A stretch of DNA of 63,669 nucleotides, counting the filler, from Hausera hauseri (Eukaryota), in assembly GCA_046269625.1 (NCBI GenBank). It is 13 parts of 13 records of this genome, joined end to end, with 100 filler letters (N's around TTAATTAATTAA, not from the genome) between each part and the next. Parts side by side here need not be neighbours in the genome. Positions count along the whole stretch, not along the records: positions 20,754 to 24,913 come from JBJURY010728768.1; 12 more parts are not named here. One strand, 5' to 3'. Position numbers and translations under genes: made by a program. Shown one piece after another: positions 11,750 to 43,111 of the stretch (its first letter is position 1; each line of letters begins with the position of its first letter). A model generated the notes under the pieces. That model saw only the letters and a program-made list of their open reading frames with translations. It did not search any database and was not told the origin of the DNA.

Positions 11750-11999
11750 NNNNNNNNNNNNNNNNNNNNNNNNNNNNNNNNNNNNNNNNNNNNTTAATTA
11801 ATTAANNNNNNNNNNNNNNNNNNNNNNNNNNNNNNNNNNNNNNNNNNNNGAGATGGAACGAAGATAATCTAAAAGACTTGCATGTTTAGTGTATTTATTA
11901 GTAAACTGTTATATAATAAAACTTTTATGTGTTTTGTGTTCTATAACAATAAAAACAACAAGTCACTGATTACAAGATTTATTATATTACAAATATCAT

Positions 12000-14267
12000 T
12001 GTCCATATTTAGTAAAGTCATTAATTACATTGTTCAGTTCCTTCTGACTGTTTTGCAATTCTTCTACCATTCCGATTATTTTACCGATCATTGGACTGAT
12101 ATTAATCAATCTGTTTCGTATAATTTCTAGCAATATCTCCGGTGCCACATACAGAAGATCGTCATTTGTAACGAACAAGTTTTGCACTTCATTCAATGCA
12201 CTGAATTTCTTTCAACTGTATCAATACTGAAACAGCAGTCATTCACATTTTGAAATAAGAAAGTTTTTGAGTCAGTTGCCTGAGACATTTTACATTCATC
12301 TGTTTTTAAGGCGTAGATTTATACTAGGCCACCATTATTAAAACAAAATTTTTTGCGCGGCAAATTCGAACTTTCATACCTACCTAAATCCTTGCAATAC
12401 ACAAACTTCACTTGCTTCTCATACACATGCACCACCCATCTTCGCCCTATTAACCGTGCGTGTGTAGCATTTTTCCTACCCCATGACTCATCCTCGAACC
12501 ACCGTTTATTTCCTTTCCTGAGGGGGGTTGATGCCATGCGCTCACTTCTATCTACTTATAGGTATTTTCATATACCTCTCGTGCTGGCGTGGTTTCGATA
12601 TAGAACATTGCTTCTTTAATCTTGTGACTATAGTGTTCAGTGGTTACTAAAATTCGGGTGCGATCTTTATCTGTTTCGAAATGTACATCTTGTATGTGCC
12701 GTTTGCTAAGTACATTCACTCCAGTGATCACTTGCTGGATTTTATCTTCCGGATCCTCATGTCCGATTACCATCCTTGTTGGGCTTTCTATAGTCATAGT
12801 TTCCATTCGTCTGGATTTCATTGGGGGATTGTCTGCTTCTTTCGAAAATTTGGGTGCCTTATTCGTCTTTTTGAATAGGTAGTCATGGAAGGCCATTTTC
12901 TTTTTTAATACTTGGATTGGGATTTCTAACCCTTTTTTTCTTCGGGATTTGTGGAACTTTAAATACTCCGTTTGTAGTTGTTTCCTGGGCTATTGTTTCA
13001 GGTTCTTTGTGACTGGCACTAGGTAATTCATCAGAAGCTGATTTCGGGATGTTTCCTTGGATAGTTATCCGAAGATCGTCTGGTTCCATAGGCTCGACCG
13101 TTCTACAGGGGATGTATGGACAATATTGTTTTTGGTATTTTCTATTTATGACTTCCGGATCTGACGAGCTTCGGAGATTTTGCCCAGGGTTATTAGGGAT
13201 TTATTCATTGTCCCATTTTAAACCCACATAAATGTCACGGAGGTATTGGGTACGTTGACTCGCCGTCAACATCTTGCTGATCTTAATATGGCCATTACTC
13301 ATGACATCCATGATTATTGGCATTTGATAGTCTCTTTCTCGCAATAATTTCTTGATTTGCTCGGCGACTACCGAGTGTGTCCTGATTTCTCTTATCCCTG
13401 CGAGGTTTGATTGGGGTATTTCCAATAATTCCATACTTTCAATTACGCGGTATCCGACAACGATATATCCATATGGGCAGTGTGCCAACTCAGTATATAC
13501 CAGTTTAGTATCTTTTCTGCTTTGGAGGGTTTCTTTGCGAATTCCCGTTAGATCAGTGTGTATCTCTGACAAGCCTTCTAGGACTGATAATCGTGCGGTA
13601 TATTTCCATGCCGTTGGTTTCTCTAATCGACACCTCCATCGGGATTTTTTTTGTGTCACTTCCTTCTCCGCAGTTGATGGCCCCAACCCTTGTATTTTTG
13701 CATCTGGAACTAATCTGTAAGATTGTAGAGATCTCTAGCTCTTCTTCCGAAGGTTTATGCTGGACTTCCAAGGGCGGCAGCAGAATATAGGATCGTTCCT
13801 CATAAGTTACTTCAAACATTATCTTGACGGGAAGGGCCGCTATCCGAAATTCCTTTTCAGAGTTGCAAGTCCTTAATACGTAGCTCGAGGGTGCTGAACC
13901 TGTACTCCATTCTTGACCTCTAAATCTGTAGTATATCTTGCCGTCGGCTAGATAAATGTAGATCTTTCGACTGAATTCAGTCTATCATTTGTCGGAGCGA
14001 GTATGCCTTGACGTTTTTATCTTCCCTCATAGCATAAAGATAAACGATCCTCTTTTCTATGACACCTTTTAGATCATTAGGAAGGGTGTGAACCTAATCG
14101 TATTTTATAGAAGACTTCCCCTGTAACTCATTGTGAATTTCTCTGTATATGGCGTTGGAATTTGGAAGGAGTACGATAGCATACTTCTGGAGGAATTCGT
14201 TGATACTATGTCGGCATTCCGGAGCGATTTCTCCTCTTGGTTCGTGGATGCTACGTCGTCCGGTCAT
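12000..14267 (-). pseudogene. Long novel accessory ORF of the complex Gypsy (copy A), fragmented
   Basis: The blocks HSINEFLQKY, YIYLADGKI, HCPYGYIVVGYRV, MLTASQRTQYLRDIYVGLKWDNE and TRILVTTEHYSHKIKEAMFY all match 21922-23740 in the same order. Confidence 0.75.
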
Positions 14268-14369
14268 GTTCTTGTTTTTATATCTGAAAAATAAACAGTA
14301 AGGGTTACTCTTACAATAAACGAGGTTTTTAAAATTAAACCAATGACAGAATAACCCATTCTGTAGTTG

Positions 14370-15520
14370 TCAGGTTATTCTATCATATGGGTCTACCGTG
14401 GGTTCCAACTCCTTTAGTTCCCATTCTGTGATTTTAGGACGCCTAGAATAGTAATTTTTTGTAGCCAACCGAACAATCGCAATTAATATAATGAGAACAA
14501 ACGTTGAGTATGATAATGGATATGATCGGTAAAGTGGTTAACCCCATTGGTGCTTGTGTGGTGACTGGAGTTGTGATTTCATCGTCTATGTGATTCATAT
14601 GCGATTCTGCACGAATTTAATCTAGAGTACGCAATGCAATTGTTTGATTTTGTTTATTCTCTCCGTATACTTGTATTATATAATCGTATTATGGTTTTAA
14701 CAAACTGCATTGTCTGGTAAGTGTCTTTAAGTAATGTTACGATTTGATTATTATACGTTGTTCGGCAGCTTATATGTATATCGTAATTTAGTTTTTCTTC
14801 TACAAAGAACAATTTTAAATTGATGTGCCGAATATTTAACAGGTATACTTTCTAATTCTCTTCTAGGCACACTGCTTGACGTAACGGTTTCCGTAAAGGT
14901 ACTAACTTGAGAGGTCGGCTTTTTGGTTGTTGTTTCTATTGAGATCCTCCATATTCTATTCTCTGGGTAATAAGTTCGCAAGTGCCTGCTTGATTTATCC
15001 GGCCGTACTTCATATGAGTCAAATTTTATTTTGAATTCTTGGTTTACGGGTAACTTACAACACGGGTGTTGCACAACGGCATGAACAGAACAGTATTCTA
15101 TTTTCGGGGGTTTTCCGTTTACTGCTTCGAAAACAATACTAATTTTTTGACTAATAGTTAATCCTGTTCGAGCATCTACTTGGATGAATAATTTATTTTG
15201 GCTTACGGAGATCACTTGGATATTTCCATTTAATAGCCTTATATTTAGGTTGGTGGATTGTAGCATTTCGTCAAGTTTTACTTCGAATCGTCTGGTCCAA
15301 GTGGAAATAATTAACTGAAGTTGTGGGTTTACTTCGATATAGACTTCTGATGAGTCTGGTAAGTACAATCGATAAGTAAGGATGTAGATGTGACCATAAT
15401 CTATGTCACAGCACTGTGTATAATCTCCGGGTGCAAAATCCGTTTTTCACTTCTTTTGTTGTTACTTTGTATAGTACAACTTGAAAATTTCCGAAATCAT
15501 GATTTGTCTCCACGTTTTAA
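14370..15520 (-). pseudogene. Type I membrane protein of the complex Gypsy (copy A)
   Basis: IEYCSV..LPVNQEFKIKFD..HLRTYYPENRIWRISIETTTKKP aligns with 21061-21816. It has a frameshifted TM segment (LPIISII / TFVLIILIAIVRL) and ends YDRIT-stop. Confidence 0.75.
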
Positions 15521-16157
15521 ATGCAACACACAGAGTCGGGCGAAAAGTAATGAGCCTTCATTGATTGTAACAAAATAGTGTCTTTTCGTTTTTGTATCTC
15601 TTCGGCCGGTGGTTTATTTTCTGTTATAATGGTTTTCGGCTTAAATCCGCTCTTCCGAATTCCATATACATCTCCTAGCGTAGTTTCATCGTCCCACCAC
15701 TGAGTTTGTGTTTTCGGGATATAAGAAGCAATTAACGACAGTGTTAAAACTATGTGAACGTATGAGATCGGTCTGGCAATTATTGAAGAAGTTTTTATCT
15801 CACGTTGTCGTAAATTGTAATGTTTGTTGGGTCGTATATCTGTTTTAACGACTCTCTGTACTGATATGACCTCTTCCTTTCCATTCTTGTTGATATACGC
15901 CGTAGTTGGCATAACTTTAGTAACTTCGTACGGTCCTCTGCATGTACGAGTCAGTTTTAACGACATAACTTTTTAGCTCCTGGGTAATGTACATAAACCC
16001 TATTTACTTGTTCTAAATCGTGTGACTTTGTTTTTTTATCATATTACTTTTTAAACTGTTCTTGATATTCTTGCGATAATTCTTTGTCAATTTCCCAACA
16101 TTTTCATAGTCGCGTCGTAGCACTTCTGCAAAATTCTGATCTAAATATTCGGGGTTA
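15517..16157 (-). pseudogene. Gypsy integrase C-terminus (GPY motif) running into a signal-peptide-like segment; complex Gypsy copy A
   Basis: RGPYEVTKV..ISVQRVVKT followed by ISYVHIVLTLSLIASYIPKTQTQW. Clearly homologous at DNA level to 33830-34436. Confidence 0.85.
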
Positions 16158-17399
16158 NNNNNNNNNNNNNNNNNNNNNNNNNNNNNNNNNNNNNNNNNNN
16201 NTTAATTAATTAANNNNNNNNNNNNNNNNNNNNNNNNNNNNNNNNNNNNNNNNNNNNAGTATTTATTGACAAAATACTACGTAAACAAAAAACAAAAACA
16301 TATTACGATCTAATGATTTCATGTTTGTGGGTACTGATGAACGTAATGACGAATTCGTTCTCGAATGACTCACTTGATTGTAGCCCTTAATGGAAAATTT
16401 AAATAAAGTAAATTGAACAATAAATTTCTCATCTGGGTGAAAAATATCCATTGAGTCCATCTTTTGTTTGCTTGTAACTGAAGGACAGAATGAATATTTC
16501 ATTAAACTATTGTCAAAGAAGAAATTCTCTTAGTCAATACGTGACGTTACTACAAATTCAATAGAAAGTATGAAATGTACACTAAACATTAAAAACGTGA
16601 TCTCTATCATAAAAGTTGATGAAAATCAAAGTTTGCCTTGGTTGGTCTAAAAGTAAAATTTCATAAATACATCAAACTTAATGATAAAAATCAAATATTT
16701 AGTTACTTATTTGCTGTGTGTTACATTATATCACAAAAAAACAATTTACGATAAAGATAAGTGCAAACAGACATTCGGAATCCGAACTACAGGGTGATAT
16801 TCGTTTGTTTAAATTATGTATCTTGATTTTGTTGCCATGGATCTAAACTACATAATATTAAAGTTTCGAAAAACTTGGAAACTTTTTTATAACCAAGTAT
16901 AAATTTCCTTCTCATAGTTTCTGATATTTTATCTTTAATAGACTACATAATTATTATTATAACACAATGTAGTCCGGACCATGGTAACAAGATCAAGATA
17001 TTTAATTTAAACAAACGAATAATCAATATTTTACTGATCATCATATAGTCTAACGGAGAAACTTTGTTTAAATGATTGATTTTGTTGAATAATAAAACTA
17101 GCAAAATGTTGCCTCTAATACAAACGGTTTTAATTGGAGTCATGAGGAGTCATAGAAGCATGCTACAAATCATTGAACGATTAGACATTTATGATCCTGT
17201 ATGGATTGATAGTTGGTTCTGTAGGATTATAGCTTAAATTTTACACCTACCAGTCAAAACAGTTTATTTAAATAACATAAATTCTCCTTCATGGATTCGC
17301 CACTAGAAACGCTCGTAGTTATCGTGCCAAGCCGGAGCGCGCCTCGTTTACTTGAAATGAGCCACCATCCAAGAAAGAATTCGCTTCTCTTAAGCCTGA

Positions 17400-18950
17400 A
17401 TCGTGGTTCCTCCGCGCATGGTTTGTATTACGTGGAATTGTATTTATTTCTACTGTGTGGTGACTTTGATACTCTCGGAATATCACTCCCTGCATCCTGT
17501 GGTTTCGAATGCTGCTCCGTTACGATGAGTTCCTTTCAAAACCTTCGCAGTCTGTTAAAAAAGTAAATGCATGAAACTTTCCCATCCTTTTTGGAGTAGT
17601 GCTGCAGAAAAGCACCATATATGTTATACTTCCGCAAGAGCGTGCCGCCATACCTTTGATAGTTCGATTATTTCTTTTGATTATACCATTTCCCTGCGGA
17701 TACTATGCACATCGAAAATGGACGTTGACTTTCTACTTTTTCAGACCATCAGCAACAGCTGCAGAACGGAAGGTTGTTGAATTATCTAATACAATTTCGT
17801 TTTGATGGTCCGAACTAACACAAAATTACTGATACACTGTTGGCACACATTCACAGCTGTTTATTGAATTAACTCCCTCCAAATGGTAAATCGAGATGGC
17901 CCATAATCGATCATGGTCAGAAAGATCTCATGACCATAATGGGTGACATCCGACGCAACACGACTACAGATATTTCGAACATCCAATTTTCCTTTTTCTC
18001 ACCTTGTCGAATTCGGATCAGTGGAAAGACACGTTGAGCATTTCAATATAATCTCGCTTCTACTATCTCAAGAAATAAATATAAACGTCTTTCACCATCG
18101 CTTCCGAGAATTCAAAAGGTTTAACATTTTGGCCTTCATCACCGTTGATGTTAGACATAAAACTACTGCCACAGAATCCAACATAAGACATCTCTTTTTA
18201 GGGCCCCGTTTAATGTCTGACTCGAACTCCGCCAAATTTATATAAGTAACATCATCTGCCTTCCACAACAAACAAGCATTTTCCACTAAATACCCTCCAA
18301 TATCAATGCATACTCCAAACTGCAATGTAATGGCGTCGCATCAAACGACCACTTTTGTTGAATTTTCTACAGCACAGATACCCTTTACCGGGTCGTTCTG
18401 CCTCATAAGAGAAATCAACTCCATTATTCACTGCTTGGTAGCCGAAGGAACCTGATCTTTCCTTTTCTAGATCTTTCCTTCGCTTATTGAAGTTGCTGCA
18501 GGAACGCAACCAAGAACATATTGGATAGTGACCAACCAATTTACCATACAATGAAAAACGTCCTCTTTTGTTAAACTTTCCGTATCACGATCATTAATTG
18601 AAGCGAATTATCTCGCCATCACCGAAATAATTGTCCTTTTCTGCCCACTCTCAACCCAAAAACTCTAGCTCCACCTAACTCCTGGATCTCGTTTGCTTTA
18701 AGACCATAATCAAGCAACAACATTCGTAGGCATACGAGGATACTACATTCCCATTTCTGACTTGTGGGCAAAAAGCTTTTTCTACAATAACTGTCATTAT
18801 TTTTGGAGCTATATTCATGCATAACCCCTGTGGTGCCCCCGGGTGTTGCGGCACCCTGGCTTTTCGGCCAGGCACAATTGGGCACGGTAGCTTTGCCCGT
18901 GTTGTGCCGTGTGTTGGGGGTTTGTTTTCGCTTATCGGAGAATTTGGCTG
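17400..18950 (-). mobile_element. Heavily decayed and internally deleted LTR-retrotransposon pol (RT-RNaseH-IN remnants)
   Basis: FGLRVG (RT), GKLVGHYPICSWLR, CDA..KADDVTYINLAEF (RNase H), DVTHYGHEIFLTMIDYGPSRFTIWR and YPQGNGII (integrase). Confidence 0.75.
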
Positions 18951-20753
18951 CTTTGAAGAATTCGGAACAGGAAGAGAAATCAAATGAATTTGGGAAATAT
19001 GTATTTTTTTTTCTGTTCAAAGACAAAAATTCAAGGACACACTTATTCATAAAATTTATATACTCTATTGTTGACATGGTATTTCGTATTCGTTATGGAA
19101 TAAAATTAAAAGCGAAAATATATCAACAGTAATGCTCGATTACAATCAACTGTTGAACAACTTTCAATTTAGTCATCAATCTAGGAAACCCGCCTCATTC
19201 CGTTCGGCCAATAAACGAAAAGCCATACTCGTACAACAATATCAATAATCTTGAACATCGAACCGTTTTCAAATATTCAAAGTTTACAAAGCGCGAATCC
19301 GTTTCAAACAGTAATATTAGTAACAGTAATCAGAATCACAGTTCCTTGTCCTACACCGAAAATCAGTTTCTACACATGCAATTAAAAATACCAGTAAAAC
19401 ATTAACTGCATCGACAACCGAATCAGCGCAACAAAGCAAACCAAGTCAACAGACTAAAAAACAAATACACCGATCACAGAATTGATATTTATCGGAAATA
19501 CTAAAGAAAAAAACCGCGGAACGTCAATTCCATTGATCGACGCATCACAAATATAAACTTCATAGATTGCGCAATAAAAACAGAAAATATGGTAGAAAAA
19601 CTGAAATCGATCAAATTCGACATTGCCAGTCAACGATTTTCCGTGCAAATATTCAGACTAATGTAAACAAGCGTCGAAAATTGGCACATGGTCGATTTGC
19701 CCAACCTTAATAATTTTTCGTAATATTGCAAGATTTTTTTTCTTGTTTAAAATTTAAAAAATTTTAAATAAATACTTCATTTCGCAAGAATTTTCGAGTT
19801 CTATTTTTATCAATCCGATGATGACTATTACCCACAGAACTCAGAACCAATTTTCCGATGATAACAAAATTGGGGGCTTTGAGTCAGAGTTCTATCAGGG
19901 CGCAATCAAACCCCACGAAAAGTCTGACAATTACTATTTTAAGATTTCTTGTCAAATGATTCAGGGAAAATTCCCATTCCGTTTGGAACTAACACCCATC
20001 AGGGCGTTTAACACATTCAAACAAAGAAGTACATATATGCAAGGGATTTACTATTTATATACAATAGATACAATAGTCACCGTTTAATTGTCTGTGCTGC
20101 ACAAAATATTTTATCAGTGTTCTTTTCTGTTAAATTCGGATTGCCGATAAAAAATATCAATTTTGTTAATATGGAATGCATTGAAAATTTGCACTATATA
20201 CTGTGTATACTGGTTTGGGTTTGAATTTTTGAATTTCGAATTTTGTTTTTGGATTTTTTCAAACATTCGAGATTTTTGATTTCGAGTTTTCATCGAATTT
20301 TAAATTTTTATTTCGGGTTCATTTATTAAGGAATCCTAACAGTTTCATGCTGTAGCAATTCTATTTTTCCTCGAGGTTGAATTATTTCATTGATTTTATG
20401 TTTCAATAAAGCTATCGTATCCAATTCCTTCATCCTTAGAGCATTAAAATCGTGATTATATTGTTGGAGAGTAACTATTATTTTGGGGTTTTCTCCGACC
20501 GTTCTTACTCTGTCTGAATACCAGTAAATTATATATCGTATAACATTCTGAAAGGGGCTTTTGCCAGCAACATATACTAACATGTCTAATAGATTGGCGA
20601 ACTGTTGATGGCTAACTGTAGGTCAAAATAACATTGAAATATCTTGTCTGAACNNNNNNNNNNNNNNNNNNNNNNNNNNNNNNNNNNNNNNNNNNNNTTA
20701 ATTAATTAANNNNNNNNNNNNNNNNNNNNNNNNNNNNNNNNNNNNNNNNNNNN

Positions 20754-21816
20754 GCGGAGCTCATAGAAAATGTTGTAATTTGGATTTCGGACAAACCTAC
20801 CGATACAAATTTCAAATGTTCTATTATAATCAGCCCAGAACCCAAGCCTATATAATTACTGAATTCTTAATAAGAATGTCTCAACGAAATTACACGAATC
20901 GAGCCAAGACGGATGAGATAATCCTAAATACTGACCCATTAAAAGGCTGTTAGATTATAACATTATAGGGATTTCCAAGGACTTAAAGAACTAATGTATT
21001 CGAATTGAGACCAAAATAGAACTGCCAAGAGATAGGCAAATTCCTGTCCGATTTATACCAGTGAACGCCTCGGTTCCTATTCCGGAGTATTGCTATATCG
21101 CACGACGACGGCTTACTGTGTCATATAGATTACAATTAGGACAAAACTACCAGTTACAGTTCGATCTGTTCAACAATTACTTTAAAGAACCGAGTACTTA
21201 CTTACGAGGATACCGCCCAAAAATCGGAATATGGAAGCTTCCATTTCCAACCACTACGAGGAAACCATTCACTGTTCCAAGTACAACTCTCACTACTGCG
21301 ATCGTCACCTCTGATGAAATGCTCAAAAAAGAACTAGGAAGAATACTGGTTACGATTTTGGCAAAAAATAATAAAATTCTATTTTACGTTGAAGAAACGT
21401 TAAACCAAGACGTCAAAATTAAATGTCACACCCTGCAAACCAATCAAATTATAATCCTAAGAAAGAATAGTCAGGGAACTGAATGCAGGTCATTACGACA
21501 GCAGCATAATTATATAGACCGAATAACCGCAAAGGGTAGGAAATCTATGACTTTTGCAGTGCGAACCCCAAATAACAAAATTGAAATAATGCAGTATAAA
21601 GAACTTAGTACCCAAAATGCGTTTACCACGAGAAGTTCTATTGAGTCGAACAATTTACCGATAATATCTATATTTGGTTTGTCAGTTTTTGTTCTTGTCA
21701 CCTTATCGGCGATGATTTTTCTAGTTTCCAAAAATTGTAATAAACGCAGTAAAAATCGAAAGGGAAATAAACGGGTAAAAGGGTGCCGAGACGAACTTTA
21801 TGACAGCATAACTTGA
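20754..21816 (+). CDS. Type I membrane protein of the complex Gypsy (copy B), 5' part broken
   Basis: 251-aa ORF with a Thr-rich linker (PTTTRKPFTVPSTTLTT), a TM segment (LPIISIFGLSVFVLVTLSAMIFLV), a basic tail and terminal YDSIT. Homologous to 14370-15520. Confidence 0.8.
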
Positions 21817-21822
21817 CAATTA
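21814..21822 (+). promoter_or_regulatory. Candidate stop-codon readthrough signal TGA-CAA-TTA
   Basis: Matches the CARYYA leaky-stop context. Copy A has TGA-CAA-CTA at 14372-14364. Both copies stay open in frame into the next ORF. Confidence 0.65.
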
Positions 21823-21921
21823 CAGATCAGGTTATCCTATCATCAGACAGAGAAAATGTTTTGTTTCAAAACAATAATCTGTCTTAGGATTGACCTTTAT
21901 TTTTATTTTAGCAGAGTAAGT

Positions 21922-24379
21922 ATGGCCGAAAAGGCGAAGAATTCAGCCATCAACTCCAGTCATGACATCGACGATTTCCTGCAACAACATGTAACATTCT
22001 TCAAGCCACTATCGAAAAGCTTATATCGTCAAATTGGAGAAAATCTGAAAAACAAAACTTATGTCGAAATCGATCAGGAAAGTAAAACACCAAATGGGTT
22101 GAAATGGAGTTTAAAGGAAAATCGACTGATTAGGCTATACGCAATGCAAAGCCCCAGAGATGCACAAGAATACCTCTTGAGAGATATGATTCCACATGAA
22201 TCGACATATTAGCAATTGTACATACATGTCGCTGATGGAAAAATTCAACACAGGATCGTAGGACAATCCTGGAGCACACAAAACGGACAACAATGGAAAT
22301 TTAGCACTTATAAGTTATATTGCTATAGTCTTATGAACTATGCTTTGGAATTCAGAATCTCAGAACTTTCAACCAAACTCATGTTCGAAATGACCTGGCG
22401 AATAGAAGTAATAAAACCGCTACCACCATTATTATGTATACAAAAGCCTTCAGAAGATGAAATAGAACAGAATGGAGAATCTTACAGACTAGTTCCAGAC
22501 GGCAGAAATACTTGAATTTTAGCCGTGAACTATGGAGAAAAGGGTGATGGATGATATACACCGATTGAAGTCTCTATTCGAAGCACAAACGGAGAACTTA
22601 TAAAAAAACAATTGCACCTAAAACTAGGGTGAAGGATACCTTTCCCGATCTCACTGGAATTACAAAAATACAATTTGAAAAGGGAAAAGATTTCTTGGAA
22701 ATCCAGGAAGATATAAGCCATTGCTTATATGGATGCATTATAACCGGATTCCGAGTGTACGAAATGTTAAAAAGACTAGGAATTAGACAAGAGTATATAG
22801 TCAGAATTCATGAACTGAGTCGAAATCCAACAGTTGTAAGTCAGGTAGAAAATACCTTAATGAGAAAAAGAGAATGTCTCCTTCCGTCAGCGTCAAGTGA
22901 ATCACAGTTCAAAATGACGCAAGAAGCCATGAATGATGAGCAGTTCAAATTTCCTAAATTGATGTCAGCAAGTCAACAAACAAAGCTTATAAATGATATT
23001 TATGTCGCACTACGATGGGAATATGAGCGGAAGCTTAGGAACCCTACACAAAATGTGATGTCAGACAACAATCCACGAATTTTAATACAAAAATTCGGAA
23101 AAGGATTTAGCGAATACCCAATATATATACAAGTTGAGCCTCAAGGACACAACAGATTTCAAGTGACTGTTTACAACAACTCAGTTAGAACGACCAGCAA
23201 CCAACAAAACCATCGATTAGCCAAGCCCAAAATGAAATAGAAATGGTTTCCAAAAGAGCAACAGGAAATCTGAAATCGAGTATCAGAGAAGTTCCGAAAG
23301 GACAAAAGACGAAGACTTCCTTCTTGGAGTATATTAGCAAAAAGAGAAGTAAAACCAGTAAGAACCTGGGCGAAGAAATAAAATCATCTGCTGGCCGCCC
23401 CATGCTCGACGAACAAGTAAACAGATCCAAGGAAAAACCCAAAAGGAAGGAGCCCGAGAATTCCGAGGGGATAAAGACGAGAACTGCCGACACAAAGTCC
23501 CGTAAGACAGAAGTAAACATTCTTAGGAAGAATTAAGAAGAAGATGAACCGATCATAGTAACGGAATTTGGCCAAGTAAAGGAATATACCAGAATGCTCG
23601 TCATGGCCGAATATTACAGCAAAGGCATGATCAAGGAAGCCATATTTTACGTATCCACTATTCCTAGGCGAATCGTAAGTGGAAACGGATACGCCCGGGA
23701 GGACGCAATCATTGGCAAATACTTAGCTCCAATATTCTAGTTGAAAAACGGTACCAATAGACTAACCATTCCGTTAGATACCCAAGTCCGAATACAATTA
23801 AAAAGGCAATATAAGAAAACCGGGATACCAGACTTAGACCAACAAAAAATCGTCGAATGGACGTCATTTACAGTGTCATATGACCTCAAGAAAGGTTCTA
23901 TCGACCTAAAACAAAAACGACTATATGGATACCTATATCAAGATAAAAAAGGATTAGTATTTGAACGAATAGAAATTGACGAAAATCTCGTGGACATATA
24001 TGGAGGAGAAAAAGAAGATTGCCCTGTTTGTGACGCCGATCTCTATGAAGGATTTGTGGTGCTGGACAATAAAGACTGTACTCACAAGTACTGTCAATAC
24101 TCTTTAGAAACGTAGACCCTGAAGAATGGGAAAACTACCTGCCCTGTATGTAGAGCTGAAGCCACAAGACTGAGATACTACGCCAATGGAGAAAATAAAA
24201 GGGTAGTGGAGATATTGCCCCCAAAACCTACTACATCCTACTACTTTGAACCGCAATCACCACAAGATGAATCAGATTTGGAAGCGGACTTACGTGGACA
24301 AAAGAACCGGTTACGCGGCACCTCTTCTGACGCAATAGGCACATCCGAGAATGCCGTTCAGGGAGGAGAAATGTTGTAA
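21922..24379 (+). pseudogene. Long novel accessory ORF ending in a RING finger (copy B), fragmented
   Basis: ORF pieces at 21856-22515, 22629-23240, 23243-23536 and 23741-24115. The RING reads CPVC..CTHKYCQYS..(W to stop)..CPVC at 24020-24151. The frame ends in the PPT/LTR (QGGEML-stop). Confidence 0.75.
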
Positions 24380-24913
24380 AATGGCCGTAAAACGTGAACT
24401 GTTTATATGTAAATCAAAACGAAACTGAAAAACGAAACCGAAAGTAAAACTGAAACTAAATATTTGACATTAGAAATTGAGAATGAAAAATTATTATTAT
24501 CCAGAATTAACCACTGAATGTGCAGGAAATCTGTAAATATGAAAATAGTTTATTGGAAAGGAGAATTATTGATTATTCCTTAAATAACGGAAAAATTAAA
24601 TGAAAATTGTGGAAAATTGTTTGTAAATAATAATTGGAAAATTATTGCTTTTGACTGCCAACTATATAAGGCAGTACAAAATCAGTTAACACGACCATAG
24701 TGAACATTGTGAAGTTTGAGTTGAACATAAATTAGAAGTTGAATTGAATTGAGCTATTGGAACAGCTCCGTTATCCAGATATTCTTGAAGATTGAATTTG
24801 TTCGAGCTATTGAAGTGCTCTACGATTTGGATATTCCTCGAAGGATTCCGCAGTTGAATTATTGAAAACTTGAAGCAGTTATTACTTATTAATCCGACGA
24901 CTATATCGTCTGG
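24360..24913 (+). repeat. Polypurine tract plus start of the 3' LTR of the complex Gypsy
   Basis: AGGGAGGAGAAA is immediately followed by TGTTGTAAA at 24372. Short repeats (GAAACTGAAA; GGAAAATT) and a TATA box (TATATAAGG, about 24663) follow. Confidence 0.75.
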
Positions 24914-25013: not shown

Positions 25014-25763
25014 ATTCGATAAAATGCTTCGTAGAGATGGTTTGTGTTTAGCAACAATGGACCGTCCGCCACCGGTTTGACCGAATTCTCGTTTATTAAA
25101 ACCCAGATTTCTTGACAATAGTTCATCAAAGGCAAAACATGTAACATTATCGTGTAGTGTAAACGAAATACGACCATCAGAATTTAATTAAAATATCTTG
25201 AGAGCCAGTTTAGTTACTGCTTTGATGGTTACACACAATTCTGCTTCCGTTTCCGTAAGAAAACCCATTCCTGTTGTATGAGAGTAAAAGAGTGATTCAG
25301 TCTTTTGCCAATTCACTGTAATATCGGTGGTTTTCGCAGTGGAAAAGTTCAATTTTTCACTAATTATACTCTGCCCACCGAGCTGTCGGATAGTGATTTA
25401 AATTGTAATTCAATCGGATGTTTGTGTTTTAGCACCAATCGATTGTTTAAATGAAAAATATAAACCGGGAAATATTGTCGTTTGTAATTGCGAACGTAAA
25501 ATGTTCCATTAGTCTCGAACTAACTGCAAACGACTAGATGCAGGAGATTGTCTTACTAGGGTATAGTATATTCCACTGTTCTCATGTACTGTTATTGGTG
25601 AAAATGTAAACGTGAATTCCGCCAAAGCCACTTCCCAGGCTCCCTGGCGTAAGTCGAACGGCTGGTCCAACGCCATGGTAAACCGTTCAGCGGTATTGTT
25701 ATTGTTGTTGTTGTCATGTTCTGATAATCTGTTACTATCAAGTATCAAATATGTGCTAATCAC
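25014..25763 (-). pseudogene. Polinton/adintovirus minor capsid (penton-like) protein, partial
   Basis: YLILDSN..NTAERFTMALDQPFDLRQGAWEVALAEFTF is the typical N-terminal pattern of Polinton minor capsid proteins. Confidence 0.7.
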
Positions 25764-26810
25764 TCAATCTGTGATGCAAAAATCCAACTCGGTGTAGTGT
25801 ATCCGTGCCACTTGACGAGATATTGTTTATTCGAACCTTTGCCGCGTGAACGTAGAATTCCCTGAATACGATACACATCAGGTTTTTCCGGTAGTACTTG
25901 CAGTTCCTGTTCGTAAAATTTGCCACGTATTTCGTCACCATTTTCATTTTCTAAAACGTACATAACCGGACTTTGCTTTGTGTTGATTGTTAAAATTCGG
26001 AAAACCTCATCGTTCCAGTTTTGATTGAAATTCTTAGTGAATGGCGTCGTACTGAGCTTGGAAATACGTACATAATCACCGATTTTATATTTTTGGTGAC
26101 GCTTAATCGCCTGTCGTCTTCGTTGTGTTGTTCGGTTGTTTTGATAAAGCCACATGTTTAAATCATCGATTACGTCAACCGGCTGTAATCCATTGATAAC
26201 ACGGCGTGTCGAATGATTGTATGAATTAATAATATCCGGTAGTACATCTATTCAGCGTTTGTTGCCTTGCTTCGTAAAGAATTTGGTTAGGCGACCGCAC
26301 AATGTTCGATTAAATCATTCAACGAGTGCAGCCTGGTATTGGGAAAACACCGAGTAGTGGTTTACGCCGAACTGTTTCAAGACTGTTGCAATGTGGGCGT
26401 TGTAAAATTCCTTACCCAAATCCGTTTGTAAGTTCTTCGGTTGTTGTTGTTGTTGCATCAGCGTCTGAACAGCGTCGGCAATCTCTTTACAAGATTTAGA
26501 TTTCACGGCAATTGCACGTGCAAAACGACTAAACACAACAAAACATGTGAGCACGTACCGATACCCATCATTGATGTTAGCGTACGGAATCATTTCCATC
26601 AGATCCATTTGCAATACATTATTTACACCGGCAGCACGATATGCACGAGTTGGAAACCGCCTTCTTATCGGTTTGTTTAGTCTGTATGCTAACTGTTTCC
26701 CGAACCAATGTTGGGTCTGTTACCGAGTCTGTTTGACGGTCTTTGCCAGTTTGTCGACGCCAGTATAGCCGACGGGATGACGCGGGTCGAGCCACACATC
26801 GCCCATCGTT
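25760..26810 (-). pseudogene. Polinton retroviral-like (rve) integrase with C-terminal chromodomain
   Basis: DPRHPVGYTGVDKL, QMDLMEM..YRYVLTC..FSRFA, LQTDLGKEFYN, YKIGDYVRISK..FTKNFNQNWNDEVF and QYLVKWHGY. Confidence 0.92.
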
Positions 26811-26962
26811 GTAGTCGTCGATTGTGTCGGTTTTGCTGATGCTTGCATTACAACAATGAGAACGAAACGTAAATGAAATATTCGGTAAACTGGGACAAAA
26901 AGATGAAAACCATGCACCCATATCGCCGAATCATCACATACTTACCGTCATTGTTTATACTA

Positions 26963-27346
26963 TCATGTTGTTGCAGAACCAATGAGTCCACCCACTAATG
27001 ACGCGACAATCGGTAGAATTGTGCCAAGGAATCTACCGTCTTGCTGGTACATAACCTCTCGTTTCAGTCGTTTACTGCGGGTGTTGGCAAGGCCAATGAG
27101 TGGTTTTCGATACTTTAGTAAATTCCGCTTTCCACTACCAATGTCAATGTGACCCACGACAATATTGTATAAAATTTCCATCAAATCGTCTATTACAAAC
27201 TGTGGGAATGATCGCAGCATGTGTCGCTTATGTCTCGTAGGTGCCTTGAGCAAACCAATAAAGTACGGTTGACTACGTTTGAATCGCATGCTTTTTTGTG
27301 GACGTATTGATGTTGATGAGATGTATTTATTTATAACCGTTGCCAC
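26963..27346 (-). CDS. Polinton/adintovirus small conserved protein with amphipathic C-terminus (pX-like)
   Basis: EILYNIVVGHI..QQDGRFLGTILPIVASLVGGLIG is a variant of the GGFL..L..L pattern usually found next to the Polinton ATPase. Confidence 0.65.
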   Translation of the reverse strand: MATVINKYISSTSIRPQKSMRFKRSQPYFIGLLKAPTRHKRHMLRSFPQFVIDDLMEILYNIVVGHIDIGSGKRNLLKYRKPLIGLANTRSKRLKREVMYQQDGRFLGTILPIVASLVGGLIGSATT

Positions 27347-27507
27347 TTTGACGGTAATTTGCGTCTACTTGCTGCTGCTGTTGTTTGAAGCACAGAATTG
27401 ATTAATCGCTTCACTGTAGCAGTTCGTTTTGATACACGTTACTTTCCGGACACCCGCTTGGTAGTAGATTGTTTACGTTTAACAAATGTTTTTCGGAAAT
27501 TCTTCAT
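27331..27507 (-). pseudogene. Small basic Lys/Arg-rich Polinton ORF with one internal stop
   Basis: MKNFRKTFVKRKQSTTKRVSGK*RVSKRTATVKRL..RRKLPSKWQRL. Confidence 0.35.
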
Positions 27508-27544
27508 TTTTTATCATAATCATGTAGTCGATTTTCGAATTTGT

Positions 27545-28170
27545 TTATATAACACATACACCACCTTTCTGATTGAAAATATCTGTGCGTATACGCATGT
27601 CATCGGGATACTGTTGTGTAAAGTCAATGAGCAAGTATCCGTGTGGTTCGGTCGTAGCATCATGATATGCATCTATCAAGTAGGCCTGATTGTGAAGAAA
27701 TGCTTGTCGTGCAACATAATCAATGATAGTTTGATCACGGCGATTTCTGAACAACACCAAATAGTGTACGTTTAGATTTCTTGTTCGATGCTGCCCACCC
27801 TGATGGAATATTTTTTGCGTAATGAAAATAACCGTTACGCCACGGTGTCGTGCAATCTTCGTGAACAGGTTGTTGAAATCCTATTGTTTCGAGGCTTCTT
27901 GAAATAAATCGTCAATGACAATAACGTCACCGCTGCGTAATCGTTCAGACCAGTTCTTATCAGACCCATCAATTACCGTTATCGATTTTAGTTTACAAAA
28001 TTCCCCATGTGTCAAACCGGACTCACCATCATCGCAAACACCCTGATGCTAGTAAATGTGATTGTACCGCGGTAAATGGAACATGTCACGGTAGTTCTTC
28101 AATAGTTTACACACAAAGTGTGTTTTGCCAGTTTCACTGGGGCCTACAATCTGGAAAATAGCATCATTCT
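27545..28170 (-). pseudogene. A32/FtsK-like DNA packaging ATPase of a Polinton
   Basis: Walker A in IVGPSETGKTHFV, Walker B in VIVIDDL, plus VLFRNRRD..DAYHDATTEPHGYLLIDF. Frameshifted. Confidence 0.92.
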
Positions 28171-28276
28171 GCAGCTTTATCAAATAATAATACAACCTTT
28201 CCTCATCACATGATTTGTTTATAATCATTTTACACTCGCGCATATAAATAGTTATAGTATAAACACTGTTTCCATA

Positions 28277-29080
28277 ATGACAGCTAATATCAATTATCTC
28301 GGACATGTTGCTAGGTGGTGTGAAATTAACACCGTACCTTTTATTCCGTGGAAGCCGCCGGATTTTACATGTATCCTATTTCAATCGGGAAAGTGTCGTA
28401 TTATGGGCTGTTGCAAACTAATCACATCTGACAACAGTAAACTGCTGCCATTCGGAATTGTCATTGACAAAATCCAATCAATAACGGTAAAGACTCAGTT
28501 AGACTACCACCAAACAATTAATCTGTACAAATTATCAATGGCCGCTGCTACTGAATGTACGTATGAAGCCGAATTGTTTCCTGCACTGAGATTGACATCG
28601 TTTTGCCCACTTTGTGTCAATGCGTTTAGCAGTGGAAAAACTGTTGTACTCGGTATATGGATAGTGGACTATGAACCGATTATTAATCAAATTAAAAATC
28701 ACATAAATACTTTACTGAATCAAAATAATGTACATGGCACAACAACAACAAACTGTAAATACCATTCCCATGCCCATTCAGACATTACTGCCATGGAAGA
28801 TGACGCCAAAACAATTCTACTCAATGATGACAATGATGCCAATGATGATGATGATGAAAGTTCAGATTGGTCGTGGTTGTTTGGCTACAACAAAAAGGAC
28901 GATTCTAATGTCAAACTGCTAGAACCACTTGTCCAACAATTAGAAAAGCAAGGTGATTGTCTGCAGGCCGATTGTCTGGAAACAAAGCAGGAACTTGCTC
29001 GGAAAGCAGCAGCAAAACCGACGTTAAAAAGGCAAAATGCAATGATTGGTGGACTACGTAAACGAAAATCAAAATCGTAA
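28277..29080 (+). CDS. Divergent TATA-binding-protein-like protein with an acidic/basic C-terminal extension
   Basis: Two TBP-like repeats: TCILFQSGKCRIMG, and IQSITV..INLYKL..YEAELFPALRL..VNAFSSGKTVVLG. Compare canonical LIFSSGKMVCTG and YEPELFPGL..IFVSGKVVLTG. Confidence 0.8.
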   Translation: MTANINYLGHVARWCEINTVPFIPWKPPDFTCILFQSGKCRIMGCCKLITSDNSKLLPFGIVIDKIQSITVKTQLDYHQTINLYKLSMAAATECTYEAELFPALRLTSFCPLCVNAFSSGKTVVLGIWIVDYEPIINQIKNHINTLLNQNNVHGTTTTNCKYHSHAHSDITAMEDDAKTILLNDDNDANDDDDESSDWSWLFGYNKKDDSNVKLLEPLVQQLEKQGDCLQADCLETKQELARKAAAKPTLKRQNAMIGGLRKRKSKS

Positions 29081-29328: not shown

Positions 29329-30262
29329 CCCCAATAATTCCCATGAGAGATGGAATTTTCGGTCGAGTTACGGGAGAGGTATTATTAACTTATGAATGCG
29401 AAAAGAGAGATGTACCCATCAGCGTTGAAGAAAAACGTTGCATTCAGGAACTTCCCGTTATTTACCAAACTACTCCAAGGTTAGCTACACCACTGACAAG
29501 AGTGTTATTGGATAACGCTACCCAACCAACCATCCTTAAAAATTGTAAAGCAAGCTTAGGAGAATTCATGTTTAGACATAGCGAGACGGACTGGGTCAGC
29601 TTACCAAATGGGAGTATTATTGCTGCTCCAAGTAAATTGACAGGAACAAATCTCGCGAAAGGAAATACCGACGATAAATTTCAAGACACCTTATCGAAAG
29701 GCATATACGACAACGAACACACGAGCTAAATCGAGCCATAGCATCAGTAGTAGATGATACACGATACCAGGCTAAATGGGAATCTTTACTTGGCGTAAAT
29801 CATTATCAGCGAGTAACCACAGAAATACTCTACAAAATTTGGGGAAAATTCTTAATTTTTGAACAAGCCGCATCCGGATTTTTAGCGATATATTTTTTGA
29901 TACCAGCTGTAATTAATGGGTATGAGATATTTACGTTGACTGGATTTTCTTGCAAAATACTGACTGCGATCGTAACACCCTTTGAAAGATTCTTAAAGGC
30001 ATACAAAGAAAACAGATGGAAATCGGACGTAGAACGTCATGTCGGATATTACAATCGTAAAGGAAGAAGAAGACCTATATTTCTGCGGAAGCGGAAATTT
30101 ACAAAACATAATACGCGAAGAAATGATTCAGACGATGACGAGCCAAAGGGAGGAGAAGTATTTTCGGGAATAAATAAATATAAAGCCTATTCGGTTATTA
30201 AAGCGCCACTACCTATGTTGCCTCCTACTGCTACAACTTATGAGGACTGCGACAAACGATAG
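29329..30262 (+). pseudogene. Class III (chuvirus/Jingchuvirales G-like) fusion glycoprotein, C-terminal part; env-like
   Basis: GIFGRVTGEVLLTYEC..RCIQELPVIY..LATPLTRVL..C..F..W, then a TM segment and the INGYEIFTLTGFSCKILTAI block that resembles chuvirus G tails. One frameshift. Confidence 0.75.
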
Positions 30263-30532
30263 GTGAGTTCCTATCAGACAGAGGTTTATAAAAGAACGAT
30301 TAATGTAGAAGACCCTTATGAAGGAACGAAACGATAGGGGATCCTGCGGAAAATTTGTTACCGACAATCTACCGACGGGCCAAAGATGCTATAGTCTCCT
30401 AGAGAGCCCAAAAATATAGAGATTAGGTCAAAGGTATGGGACAATCCAAGGTTGAAAACTTTTTAAAATACCGAATTACATACTAACAATCGAGAACCAT
30501 TAATTAGTACACACGAGACGGCAGAATTCTAT

Positions 30533-33500
30533 ATGGAAAACAATGAATTATATCCAAATGAAGAATTGAGACATTTATCGGAGAACATGGTATTCTCCCC
30601 AGAGATCCGAATAAATGGACATAAAATATCGGCAGTAGAACGTTCGAAAGATACATTGAAATGCTTGGGTACAGTAATAGAAGGAAGGCCTTTCGCCAAA
30701 ATCATTATTAAAGATTGGGAAGTCTACGCATTAATCGATACAGGATCCGAGATGTCTTACATAAAAAACGATTCAATTCCTAAAACGCTGAGAGGACAAT
30801 TGTACCCACCGTCCACAAAAGATCCACGAAGTACAGGAGCTTTTGGCCAAATGTCTAAACCTATGTTTAAATGGAATCCAGAAGTTCAAATAGTTGGATA
30901 ATTTTTCCACCACGAATTTGCAGTTATGGAACCATTAACCGATGACATAATTTTAGGATGTGATCTACTGAAAAGACTACCGAATATAGCAGTTGACTTG
31001 CAAACAGGGAAATTGATAGAAATCAGAACAAATAAAGGCGTGAAAAATGCTAAAGATAGAAAATTTGGAGAGGTCTGGATACCAGTAGATGAAGATATTC
31101 CACCAAGAACAGAGTTAATAATTTACGCACAAATTCAGCAAGATGACGATCAACCAGTATACTTTGAACCAAGAGAGACATTAAATCCAAATATAATACT
31201 TAGTAACATACTGACAAGAGTACATTCCGGTCGTGTGCCAATAAGAATAGCTTACAATGCACCAATCCCCATTAAACTCTATGCTTATACTACTCTAGGA
31301 GATACGTATACAGTGTCATCAATAACTATTCAAGAGAAACCTTACAAGTATGCCGAAGTTCCACCTCATGTCGAAACTAAGTTTTCTCCCGAATCTTATT
31401 GTCGATTTTATGAATTATTATTTTACTAAAAATCGATCATCGTTAAAGACGACGAAGATATCGGTAGGACAAAAACATTAAAGCTAACTATTCCTCTAAA
31501 TAAAAAGCCAGGTTCGAATGAAGAAATAGACATTGAGGATCAAAAGACGCCGAAATGGTATCCTCCACCACATTCGTTAAGACCTGAGATAACAAAGGAA
31601 GTCGAACGAATACTTAAAGCCGATATAATCAGGCCCAGTTACAGATCTTGGTATTCATCAATCCTCGTGGTTAAAAAGAAAGGTACCACAAAACATCGAT
31701 TTTGTTTTGACTACAGAGCTTTAAACAATCTTATGATGAAAGACTCTTTCCCATTGCCATCAGTAAAAGAAGCTTTAGATAGACTCTCAGGCGCAAAATG
31801 GTTTATTACTCTGGACTTACAATCCGGATATTGGCAAGTGGAAATTGAAGATGAAGACCGATATAAGACAGCATTTAAGACGCACGATGGTGTATATGAA
31901 TTTAACGTCATGCCGTTCGGTATTACTACCAGGCCAGCTATATTTAAAGGATGATGAATAAGATGTTAATGGGACTGGATCAAGCTTTTGCGTACTTAGA
32001 CGACGTAATTATAGCATCAAAAACGGAAGAAAAACACCTAAAGCACATTGAACACACTAATGCGTCTGGAGCAAGCCGGATTGAAATTAAACCCAAAGAA
32101 ATGCAAGTGGGCACAATTGGTAGTATACTACCTTGGCCATATAGTTGGAGAAGGAGGATCGAAACCGGATAAATCATTATTAAGTAAAATATCAGATTGC
32201 ATGGACCCGCAAAACCAAAAAGAATTAAGGCACTGGCTAGTATTATGCGGTTATTATGCAAACTATGGGTCAGATAATTCAAAGATAAACACACCCCTAT
32301 ATTGTTTACTTAAAAAAGGAATAAAATAGAAATGGACGGACGTCGAACAAAAAGCTTTTGGTGAGATGAAGAAGATATTAACAAGCGAACCCGTTTTACG
32401 ATATCCAGATTTTAGCTTACCTTTCATAATCAAGACAGACGCCAGTAAGGAAGGCATCGGATAAGAATTAGCGCAGAAGAGAGATGATGAAGAATTAGAA
32501 CGCCCGATTGCTTATGGAGGACGATCCTTGAAGAAGGCCGAGAGAAACTACTCTGTCACCGAGTTGGAAACTCTAGCCGCAAAAGAAGCACTTCGCCACA
32601 TCAACGTTTATGTATACGGGCAGAAAATTATAATCGTTACCGATCACAAGGCCGTTACGACTTTGAAAGGCCGGGCAAATAATCCGACATGCAGACTTAA
32701 CAGACGGATTGAAGAAATATCAAGATACAATACCAAATTTCAATATAAGCCAGGGAATAAACATGTAGACGCGGACGTATTATCGAGATAAAAGACCAAA
32801 ACCAGCGCAATCACTGTAATGCAAAAGAGTCAACTTGAAGAAATAATAGACCGACAACGCGCTTTAACAATGGATAAGGTCATAAAAATTTCAAGGGAAC
32901 AAAGAAAGGATAAGGTCATTCAGCAGATTATAGAATTTGCTAAGAAGGATGTCATACTGAAAGGACGACAGCTTAAGAAGCATTTACGCAGACACGGACA
33001 TAAATACTGCATCTTAAACGACAAGAATAATGAGAATATTTTATATTACGAAAGGAAAGGAAGAAAATTGATAGTTATTCCAAAAGGGTTATGAACCGAA
33101 GTATTGATGTCAGAATACAATTCATATTTAGCCGGATATATGTCCTGGAAGAAAACGTTATAGAAAATAATGAGCAAATATTTTTGGCCTAATATGTATA
33201 TTGACGTGAAGAATTAAGTACATGCATGAGAAGTATGTGCAACTAAACTAAAGAAGACGAAAAATTACATAACTGAATTAAAACCAATTGATGAAGCCGA
33301 TAGGCCCATGCAAGCCATGTCGATGGATATTGTAGGACCTCTCCTTACAAACCGTAAAAATAACAAGTATATCTTGACGTGTATCGATCGACTAACTCAT
33401 TTTGTCGAATTTATAGCATTAATCGATCAAAGGGCTGAAACCTTAGCAGAAGCCGTAGTAAGAAGACTTATTTACCGATACGGACCCCCAGTTAAGGTGC

Positions 33501-34140
33501 TTACAGATCGAGGAAGAAATTTCAGCAGTAAACTTTTTGTGAAGATTTCCAAAATACTTGAAATCGAAAGGTTGACGACTACTGCTTATCATCCTTAATG
33601 CAATGGAATGGTCGAGCAAATGAACGCTACCGTCAAACGTGTATTATCTACGGTAGTAGCCAAAGATCAGAAAGATTGGGATGAGTTTTTAGAAGGAATA
33701 CAATTTGCAATTAATACTACACCACACCCGGCGACAGGATTCACACCAATTTTATGATGTGTGGACGTAAAGCCGTATTACCCACAGATTTAGGAATGAC
33801 ACCATATACGGTCAATCTTGAGGACTTAGAACAAAATTTTGCAGAAGTGTTACAGACACGATTACGAAAATGTTGGGAGATCTCTAAGGAGTTATCTCAA
33901 GAATATCAAGAGCAGTTTAAAAGATAACATGACAAGAATGCAAAACCGCACGATTTAGAACAAGGAAATTGGGTTTATGTACATTATCCAGTAGCTAAAA
34001 AAGGTACCTCATTAAAATTAATTCGTACCGGCAGAGAACCGTACGAAGTCACCAGGGTTACGCCAACTACAGTGTATATCAACAAAAATGAAAAGAAAGA
34101 AGTGGTATCAATACAAAGAGTTGTAAAGACGGAGATACGG
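30533..34140 (+). mobile_element. Ty3/Gypsy pol (PR-RT-RNaseH-IN), decayed; complex Gypsy copy C
   Basis: ALIDTGSEMSYI; RFCFDYRALN; LDLQSGYWQV..KTAF..VMPFG; YLDD; TDASKEGIG..NYSVTELE..VTDHKA; SMDIVGPL..LTDRGRNF..TTAYHP. Confidence 0.96.
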
Positions 34141-34436
34141 CCCAATAATTTACGCCAACGTGAAGTAAAGACTTCTTCAATAATTGCTAGACTAATATCG
34201 TACGTTCAGAGAGTTTTGGAATTATCGCTAATTGCTTTTTGCATTTTAAGAACACAAGCGGAATGGAAGCATAAAGAACCTGTCGTAAAAGATAATTACA
34301 GAATTAAGAAAAATGAGGCGAGGTGGGAGACTCTTAAAACGGGGAAGACACTGACAGTGGAAGAAAAGCAAAGATAAGAAGATGTCAGATTATTATAGTC
34401 AATAATAATAAACTATTATTCGCCCAACTCCACATG
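34140..34436 (+). CDS. In-frame post-integrase signal-peptide-like segment and start of the membrane protein
   Basis: LRQREVKTSSIIARLISYVQRVLELSLIAFCILRTQAEW matches copy A. Confidence 0.7.
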
Positions 34437-34559
34437 NNNNNNNNNNNNNNNNNNNNNNNNNNNNNNNNNNNNNNNNNNNNTTAATTAATTAANNNNNNNN
34501 NNNNNNNNNNNNNNNNNNNNNNNNNNNNNNNNNNNNTTCCCGCTTATTAGTTTTAATCT

Positions 34560-36400: not shown

Positions 36401-36499
36401 TTTTTTTATTATCTGAAGAGTTTCCTTTTTCTTTTGTGGAACTGTTATAAGATGGCATTGTTGAGTCCAACTTTCTTTCATTTAGGTACTTAGAATATT

Positions 36500-38155: not shown

Positions 38156-38224
38156 TGTTATTAAAAAAAATTACGTTATTATCCATCTTATTATATGTAT
38201 ATTGTACAAATTTTTTCTATGGAT

Positions 38225-38828: not shown

Positions 38829-39110
38829 TAGGGACAGGTACTTCTTCATCGTTGTTGGAATTATGGATAGTTCCCAGTGTGGAAATTCGTTTATGGCCAA
38901 TTTCAGGATATGGTGACAGTCATAACCTTGAAAGTTATAAAATATCACCAGTAGGAATGGCCGAACACGCCTTGCAAAATTGCATGCATTACGTGCTGAT
39001 CCCAGGTATCGTCCGGTAAAGTAGTCGTGATCACGTACAAGCCGTTCCTGTAGATCTAACCGCAATATTTTGTGGCACAGGCAACATTCGTCAGTGTGGT
39101 GACCACAACG
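38829..39110 (-). pseudogene. pPolB fragment (endonuclease VII-like region and start of exonuclease)
   Basis: CCLCHK..VRDHDYFTGRYLGSARNACN..IFYNFQGYDCHHIL. Confidence 0.85.
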
Positions 39111-42923: not shown

Positions 42924-43111
42924 GTACGATCTGTTAAATCGTACTTGACGGTTTTAATTGCATCTGTAATAAATCCATATAATCCAGTAATAGATTCAAT
43001 TCACAAGAAAAAAATCCAGATTATAAGACGCTTTTATTATAAGACGTTGCTGAATAAATAAGCTGCTGAATTAATTCAGAATTCAATTACCAATAACCAA
43101 AAATCAATTAT

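Follow-up and report, generated by a model that had tools for sequence, protein, structure and literature searches.

In TMV type I readthrough (the Beier-Grimm type, UAG-CAR-YYA), the stop codon and the bases behind it read UAG CAA UUA CAG AUU (PMC13517186, table 1), and the motif has been reported as functional with all three stops in plants and yeast (PMC13517186). In the stem type, known from the UGA readthrough of alphaviruses and coltiviruses, a UGA-CUA or UGA-CGG context is combined with a conserved 3' stem; the stimulatory stems of VEEV, CTFV and SINV begin at +12 to +16 (PMC13517186), and a readthrough of 10.1% was measured in cells for UGA-CAA-UUA followed by the VEEV stem (PMC3159437). 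Among LTR retrotransposons, the Ty1/copia element SIRE1 employs stop codon suppression at its pol-env junction (PMC2829016). GAG-ENV-POL errantiviruses, with the env-before-pol order and an HSV/gB-type env, are described from Nematoda, Bryozoa and Platyhelminthes (PMC13524379), and the planarian element Burro has env between gag and pol (PMC6431247).

We analysed a window of 63,669 nucleotides from Hausera hauseri (GenBank assembly GCA_046269625.1), made up of 13 short contigs joined by N-spacers, with mainly decayed eukaryotic mobile elements as its content. Two copies of one retroelement, A and B, carry UGA-CAA-YUA at the end of a membrane protein, and we consider it probable (roughly 0.75), judging from sequence features, that the UGA ending this second membrane protein of the element bears a programmed stop-codon readthrough signal. 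The signal resembles both TMV type I and the alphavirus stem type, without strictly belonging to either. With type I it shares CAA-YUA after an in-frame stop, the match on to CAG-A and an open frame (PMC13517186, PMC3159437), but it uses UGA instead of UAG, has a compensated stem where type I needs none, and belongs to an animal retroelement. With alphavirus and coltivirus readthrough it shares the UGA, a basal stem of 10-11 bp at +16, a variable structured loop and compensatory changes (PMC3159437, PMC13517186), whereas CAA-YUA here replaces CUA or CGG, a rival hairpin lies over the stop, and a membrane protein would be extended rather than a polymerase.

SIRE1 is alike in being an LTR retrotransposon with a downstream ORF reached via a leaky stop; here, however, the element is an animal Ty3/gypsy one, and the stop ends the membrane protein with a cytosolic accessory behind it, which reverses the layout. 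The pol-env stop of SIRE1 is said to lie in a CARYYA context. The GAG-ENV-POL errantiviruses are matched by a gB-type glycoprotein 5' of a Ty3/gypsy pol on one contig of the window (29329-34436), but two modules are added here after the integrase, a type I membrane protein and a DnaQ-like/RING ORF. Rotifer Juno and Vesta (PMC5408684) and planarian Burro and GYPSM1 (PMC6431247) are likewise invertebrate gypsy elements with captured domains (DEDD nuclease, membrane or ubiquitination-linked). A text search of these two papers gave no match for readthrough, one of the main text of PMC13524379 gave none for readthrough, RING or exonuclease, and our literature search found no report of an animal gypsy element with readthrough at a junction of this kind.

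The element and its second membrane protein

11850-16157 (-): contig of copy A
20754-24913 (+): contig of copy B
29331..34374 (+): third family member, on the separate contig 29329-34436, with gB-type glycoprotein, PR-RT-RH-IN and the start of the same membrane protein in frame with the integrase
14370..15972 (-): copy A, integrase C-terminus and membrane protein, with signal-like stretch (~15783-15727), ectodomain, transmembrane helix (~14516-14460) and YDRIT end; broken by stops and frameshifts
20995..21816 (+): copy B, C-terminal 273 aa of the membrane protein, with transmembrane helix (~21670-21726) and the tail end YDSIT
24360..24913 (+): copy B, polypurine tract, then TG and likely 3' LTR, the LTR being inferred and a second LTR absent from the contig

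On contig 29329-34436, we identified a gB-type glycoprotein (PF24664, E 5e-8 and 6e-9), with protease, RT, RNase H and integrase following downstream in this order. A gB-type env thus stands 5' of a Ty3/gypsy PR-RT-RH-IN, as in GAG-ENV-POL gB-type errantiviruses. The end of this contig is 56-58% identical to the start of copy A, which links the env-before-pol arrangement to copy A. The element of copies A and B is likely to be an env-pol Ty3/gypsy errantivirus of which the contigs are fragments, and the sequence following the copy B polypurine tract is likely its 3' LTR. Both copies are decayed, each with many stops and frameshifts, and their flanking proteins are only 30-44% identical. At 30260-30535 (+), the TAG that ends the gB ORF directly adjoins a donor-like GTGAGT, and a perfect TACTAAC lies about 50 bases 5' of the Pol ATG; Pol may be expressed on this contig by splicing round env.

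Both in copy A and on contig 29329-34436, the integrase C-terminus continues in frame into a hydrophobic signal-like stretch. A single transmembrane helix lies about 30 residues before the stop, with a hydropathy of 2.65 in copy B and 2.06 in copy A, against 1.22 and 0.2 for the respective spacers behind the stop. With one helix before the stop and an N-terminal signal, any extension would be cytosolic. An Atlas search with the membrane protein returned weak Ig-like leads only, under the recognition threshold. The tail ends in YDxIT, which we take to be a YxxPhi-like sorting motif. Pol and the membrane protein would arise as a single polypeptide that is separated at the internal signal peptide, and the majority of chains would end at YDxIT. 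Searches with RT and Pol found generic Ty3/gypsy proteins, the best of which, P0035, is 35% identical over the whole of Pol. P0035 has the same layout: Pol is followed by signal, ectodomain and transmembrane helix and then by a tail rich in proline and tyrosine, which lacks the YDxIT end. The fusion of Pol to a membrane protein seems to mark a wider lineage.

Stop context, open spacer and relatives

21814..21825 (+): copy B, leaky stop context UGA CAA UUA CAG
14361..14372 (-): copy A, leaky stop context UGA CAA CUA CAG
21817..21921 (+): copy B, spacer of 35 open codons, in frame with both ORFs
14268..14369 (-): copy A, spacer of 34 open codons

The first-pass annotation had read YDSIT-TGA-CAA-TTA in copy B and YDRIT-TGA-CAA-CTA in copy A, and both readings stand, at 21814-21822 (+) and 14372-14364 (-). 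Its description of a TMV-type leaky stop was borne out by the CAA-YUA hexamer and by a match that extends well beyond it: both copies read UGA-CAA-YUA-CAG-A, and agree with TMV at the first 11 bases after the stop (copy B) or at 10 of 12 (copy A). The sole difference between the copies within the hexamer is the permitted Y, which is synonymous. The 9-mer TGACARYYA occurs 8 times in the window against an expectation of 5.9, which is no enrichment, so that the motif has weight only through its position. CARYYA follows 17 of the 6770 stop triplets in the window and CAAYTACAG only two, which are those of copies A and B. As in type I, CAR-YYA is directly 3' of an in-frame stop in both copies; the stop is UGA in each, not UAG. 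Since the motif is reported to act with all three stops, the signal would work like type I, as a variant of it.

The frame was said to continue without a stop for 34-35 codons to the next ATG, and it does so, over 35 codons to the ATG at 21922 in copy B and 34 to that at 14267 in copy A. Copy B has an earlier in-frame ATG at 21856. Three of the remaining four frames (two per copy) contain stops, frame 1 of copy A being stop-free; when the spacer of either copy is shuffled, about 6% of the results contain no stop. The spacers had also been said to differ; this holds in part, as 37 of the 48 bases from -18 to +29 are identical without a gap, and the two are thus not simply different. At 21916-21921 (+) in copy B, a perfect donor, GTAAGT, lies just 3' of an acceptor-like AG. 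It encodes VS, which is kept in the two database relatives described below and missing in copy A.

A profile search of 1.84 billion proteins identified two relatives, P0033, an intact accessory protein of 870 aa, and P0034, of 333 aa and apparently cut at its C-terminal end. Both gene calls begin inside the spacer and read open through it; the first inner Met is at residue 55 in P0033 and residue 68 in P0034 (after 54 and 67 open codons), and neither has a Met at the position of the copy B ATG. P0033 starts in the spacer and is not fused to the membrane ORF, which implies a genuine stop 5' of it, in an element that is intact. The N-terminus of P0034 aligns to the copy B spacer ungapped at 9 of 25 residues (7 of 23 outside the anchor, shuffle p 0.0004). 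P0033 aligns to it given a one-codon indel, and an ungapped alignment was rejected (2 of 21). The first 19 residues of P0033 are hydrophobic (2.07), and its spacer could touch the membrane. Further searches were negative: viral contigs contained no relative when searched with the middle piece of copy B or with P0033, none of the 23 loci from a metagenome pattern scan had a tblastn match to the element, and a word-based search with the N-terminal accessory piece of copy B found none among 392 candidates.

We additionally compared copy B with X1, the one read run found to contain the family; no RNA run was among those listed, which has no bearing on expression. Over 21300-22600, where 1652 X1 contigs were aligned, no variant fell at 21814-21828 among the 40 of 350 listed. 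About 99% of the depth at 22210 lacks the stop found there in copy B, which is thus a private lesion of that copy. A comparison of 393 X1 contigs over 21795-21930 covers the middle of that interval, 3' of the stop and hexamer; it gave 12 variants at a share of at least 1%, all within 21829-21892, and no indels at that share in the covered middle. None of the 12 makes a stop, a weak result given that 58% is expected by chance. The net length of the eight longest X1 records was unchanged in four, +9 in two and shifted in two (+1, -2), so that the frame is kept in six of the eight. With the spacer open in all four sequences available (A, B, P0033 and P0034), the frame is conserved across most of the further copies examined. 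Depth reached 100,619 over the stop region; in the flanks it was mostly between hundreds and a few thousand. The peak is suggestive, but since depth is governed by seeding and does not allow parts to be ranked, it does not count here as evidence.

Predicted RNA structures and competing readings

21829..21896 (+): copy B, predicted 3' stem-loop P2, arms 21829-21839 and 21885-21896 with inner hairpins between, z -5.6
14302..14357 (-): copy A, predicted 3' stem-loop P2, arms 14357-14348 and 14311-14302, z -4.7
21800..21843 (+): copy B, alternative hairpin P1 over the stop, 13 of 15 pairs, z -2.0
14343..14386 (-): copy A, alternative hairpin P1, 15 of 15 pairs, z -5.9
21890..21914 (+): copy B, acceptor-like site with branch-like motif inside the P2 3' arm, T-rich tract and tandem AG; phase 2
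14284..14308 (-): copy A, acceptor-like site with branch-like motif inside the P2 3' arm, T-rich tract and AG; phase 2

P2 begins at +16 in both copies (counting the U of the stop as +1). It is fully paired, at 10 of 10 positions in copy A and 11 of 11 in copy B, with two double compensatory changes between the two sequences compared. The fold windows were picked after the stems had been seen, which flatters the z-scores. Of the features of the stem type, a conserved 3' stem at about +12 to +16 with compensatory changes is thus present (in two sequences), and a UGA-CUA or UGA-CGG context is not, the context here being UGA-CAA. In P1, the last five codons of the membrane ORF pair with the 5' arm of P2, with the stop at the top of the stem, and there is no double change between A and B. 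Free RNA folding favours P1 in copy A (0.99) and P2 in copy B (0.81); when the stop region is constrained to be unpaired, as under a ribosome, P2 folds in both. Nine of the X1 variants fall at paired or pairable positions, where four keep a pair, one creates a pair and four break one, one of these four (all scored on copy B pairs) having a share of 81%. Two near-fixed differences between copy B and the other contigs, at 21804 and 21813, are at synonymous third positions on P1 pairs, at which copy B has a mismatch or wobble. Rfam gave no match at E up to 1 in 11850-24913, SECIS included, and a selenocysteine UGA was rejected on this ground.

The conserved block could instead be a splice acceptor, with a phase-0 CAG 10-12 bases after the stop and a TAAC/TGAC branch site. 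Either an exon from further 5' or a flatworm spliced leader whose last three bases are AUG would then be joined at this CAG and read in frame via the spacer, and there would be no membrane-anchored form. An acceptor here would account equally well for the open spacer and for the missing Met in P0033 and P0034, and P1 holds the AG of the CAG in its loop. The flatworm leader does end in AUG, which can start translation and, among trans-spliced S. mansoni transcripts, has the right frame in 28% (PMC9851317), although our host may not be a flatworm; the introns of the host gene in the window are short. We nonetheless regard this as unlikely: it leaves unexplained the exact CAA-YUA hexamer, the TMV match beyond it, the terminator of the membrane ORF in the same frame and the compensated stem at +16, and a pyrimidine tract is missing. 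It also seems to us quite improbable that the accessory ORF is solely soluble, being translated from a subgenomic message spliced at the T-rich acceptor before its ATG, while the hairpins control that splicing or the packaging of the genome, and the hexamer and open frame are kept incidentally through conservation of the RNA. Branch-like motif, T-rich tract and AG do lie 5' of the ATG in both copies, the motif within the 3' arm of P2; a Met stands between the acceptor-like site and the conserved domain in four of four family members, and extra ORFs of LTR elements are typically expressed via spliced messages (PMC5408684). Such a message does not need an open in-frame spacer, yet all four are open and the indels of the relatives are in frame, and an acceptor of phase 2 would put a leader AUG out of frame. 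Splicing is otherwise compatible with readthrough, the low standing given here being for splicing without it.

That the UGA is a decay lesion in a once-continuous ORF, or the motif a product of chance, is very improbable. The many stops and frameshifts in both copies, and the lack of enrichment of the 9-mer by itself, would fit such an origin, but the stop has an identical position in two copies of such low identity, no near-fixed difference among the listed variants touches 21814-21828, the 22210 stop in comparison is private, and the intact P0033 call begins in the spacer instead of continuing from the membrane ORF. We also rejected a local intron with its donor at the GT at +18 and its 3' end at the T-rich acceptor. 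At 72, 81 or 84 bases it would preserve the frame in every case, but its joint is absent among the listed X1 variants, and a retroelement should lose an internal intron that is efficiently spliced. Programmed readthrough is favoured jointly by the stop context, by the frame, by a 3' stem with compensatory changes at a typical distance from the stop, and by the spacers of two relatives, which are open; together these features support, at the probability given above, the annotation's proposal of a membrane-anchored long form.

In programmed readthrough, a ribosome reaching the stop would melt P1 and release the shared arm for P2, and a minority of ribosomes would pass the UGA by way of the TMV-type context and the predicted stem at +16. 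The accessory ORF would thereby be added to the cytosolic tail of the element's second membrane protein. Beside this product, we lean towards the existence of a soluble form from a spliced message. A more tentative and rather doubtful idea is that the spacer, of 110 bases, forms a two-state RNA switch coupling splicing and recoding. P1 over the stop would free the branch site and allow the spliced message, giving a soluble pseudonuclease-RING; a ribosome on unspliced RNA would flip P1 to P2, hiding the branch site and driving readthrough into a membrane-anchored, receptor-like ubiquitin ligase of an invertebrate retrovirus.

The accessory protein and the surrounding contigs

21922..24379 (+): copy B, accessory ORF with N-terminal domain, DnaQ-like domain, linker and RING (~24020-24151); broken, first stop at 22210
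12450..14267 (-): copy A, accessory ORF; broken, reaching the polypurine tract without a RING region

The RING profile PF00097 matches P0033 above the cut-off (E 2.6e-7), as a RING of C3HC4 type, and matches a remnant in copy B below it (E 1.2e-4); none was found in copy A. The DnaQ-like stretch of P0033 matches DnaQ (E 8e-4) and PolC (E 3e-3), the DnaQ-like fold is an Atlas lead at 0.86, copy A has weak ISG20L2 and PolC matches, and a Pfam search with this region of P0033 gave no match. Structure models were of too low confidence for use (pLDDT 34.5 and 33.1). The first motif of DEDDh exonucleases is D-x-E. Here it reads, by eye, N-x-G or N-x-A, with the acidic residues missing, and the nuclease fold is probably inactive; in Juno and Vesta, in contrast, the nucleases keep their catalytic residues and are encoded in separate ORFs (PMC5408684).

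At 12450-12560 (-), the accessory ORF of copy A lacks the last 230 residues of P0033, including the RING, and its polypurine tract follows about 30 codons past the region matching P0033 residue 637. The accessory ends at the polypurine tract are similar (GxxKML/GGEML). Copy A represents either a RING-less subfamily or a deletion. The first-pass annotation had placed an accessory/RING region on the cytoplasmic side of the membrane; the transmembrane helix does place the extension there, and the RING part of the claim applies to copy B only. The long form would thus be a membrane-anchored, probably inactive nuclease fold, with a RING as well in the B-type subfamily, where it would be a receptor-like ubiquitin ligase, probably acting on host defence or trafficking proteins. 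If readthrough is correct, an animal retroelement would join the short list of its users, and the cassette of about 130 bases would be a natural pairing of the strongest known context with a 3' stem, so far mainly a laboratory hybrid. Recoding would then shift the location of an accessory protein between cytosol and membrane, and an invertebrate endogenous retrovirus would possess a membrane-anchored ubiquitin ligase.

Elsewhere in the window, a Gag-like ORF at 34556-38170 (-) has a long coiled region at its N-terminus; the roughly 550 codons behind it encode a protein of unknown kind, for which Pfam gave nothing beyond weak matches. This piece may belong to the 5' end of the present element or of a different large one. 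Decayed Polinton/adintovirus-like pieces are found on four contigs, at 371-1839 (+), 25763-29077, 38829-42953 (-) and 50649-54109 (+), and carry protein-primed polymerase B, packaging ATPase and integrase (named by eye). Finally, a host methyltransferase gene lies at 60290-60830 (-), with a weak Pfam methyltransferase match, and is presumably METTL2-like. Its introns are about 40 bases long by eye, with lenient donors and, in one of them, an A-rich acceptor; this length suggests a flatworm host.
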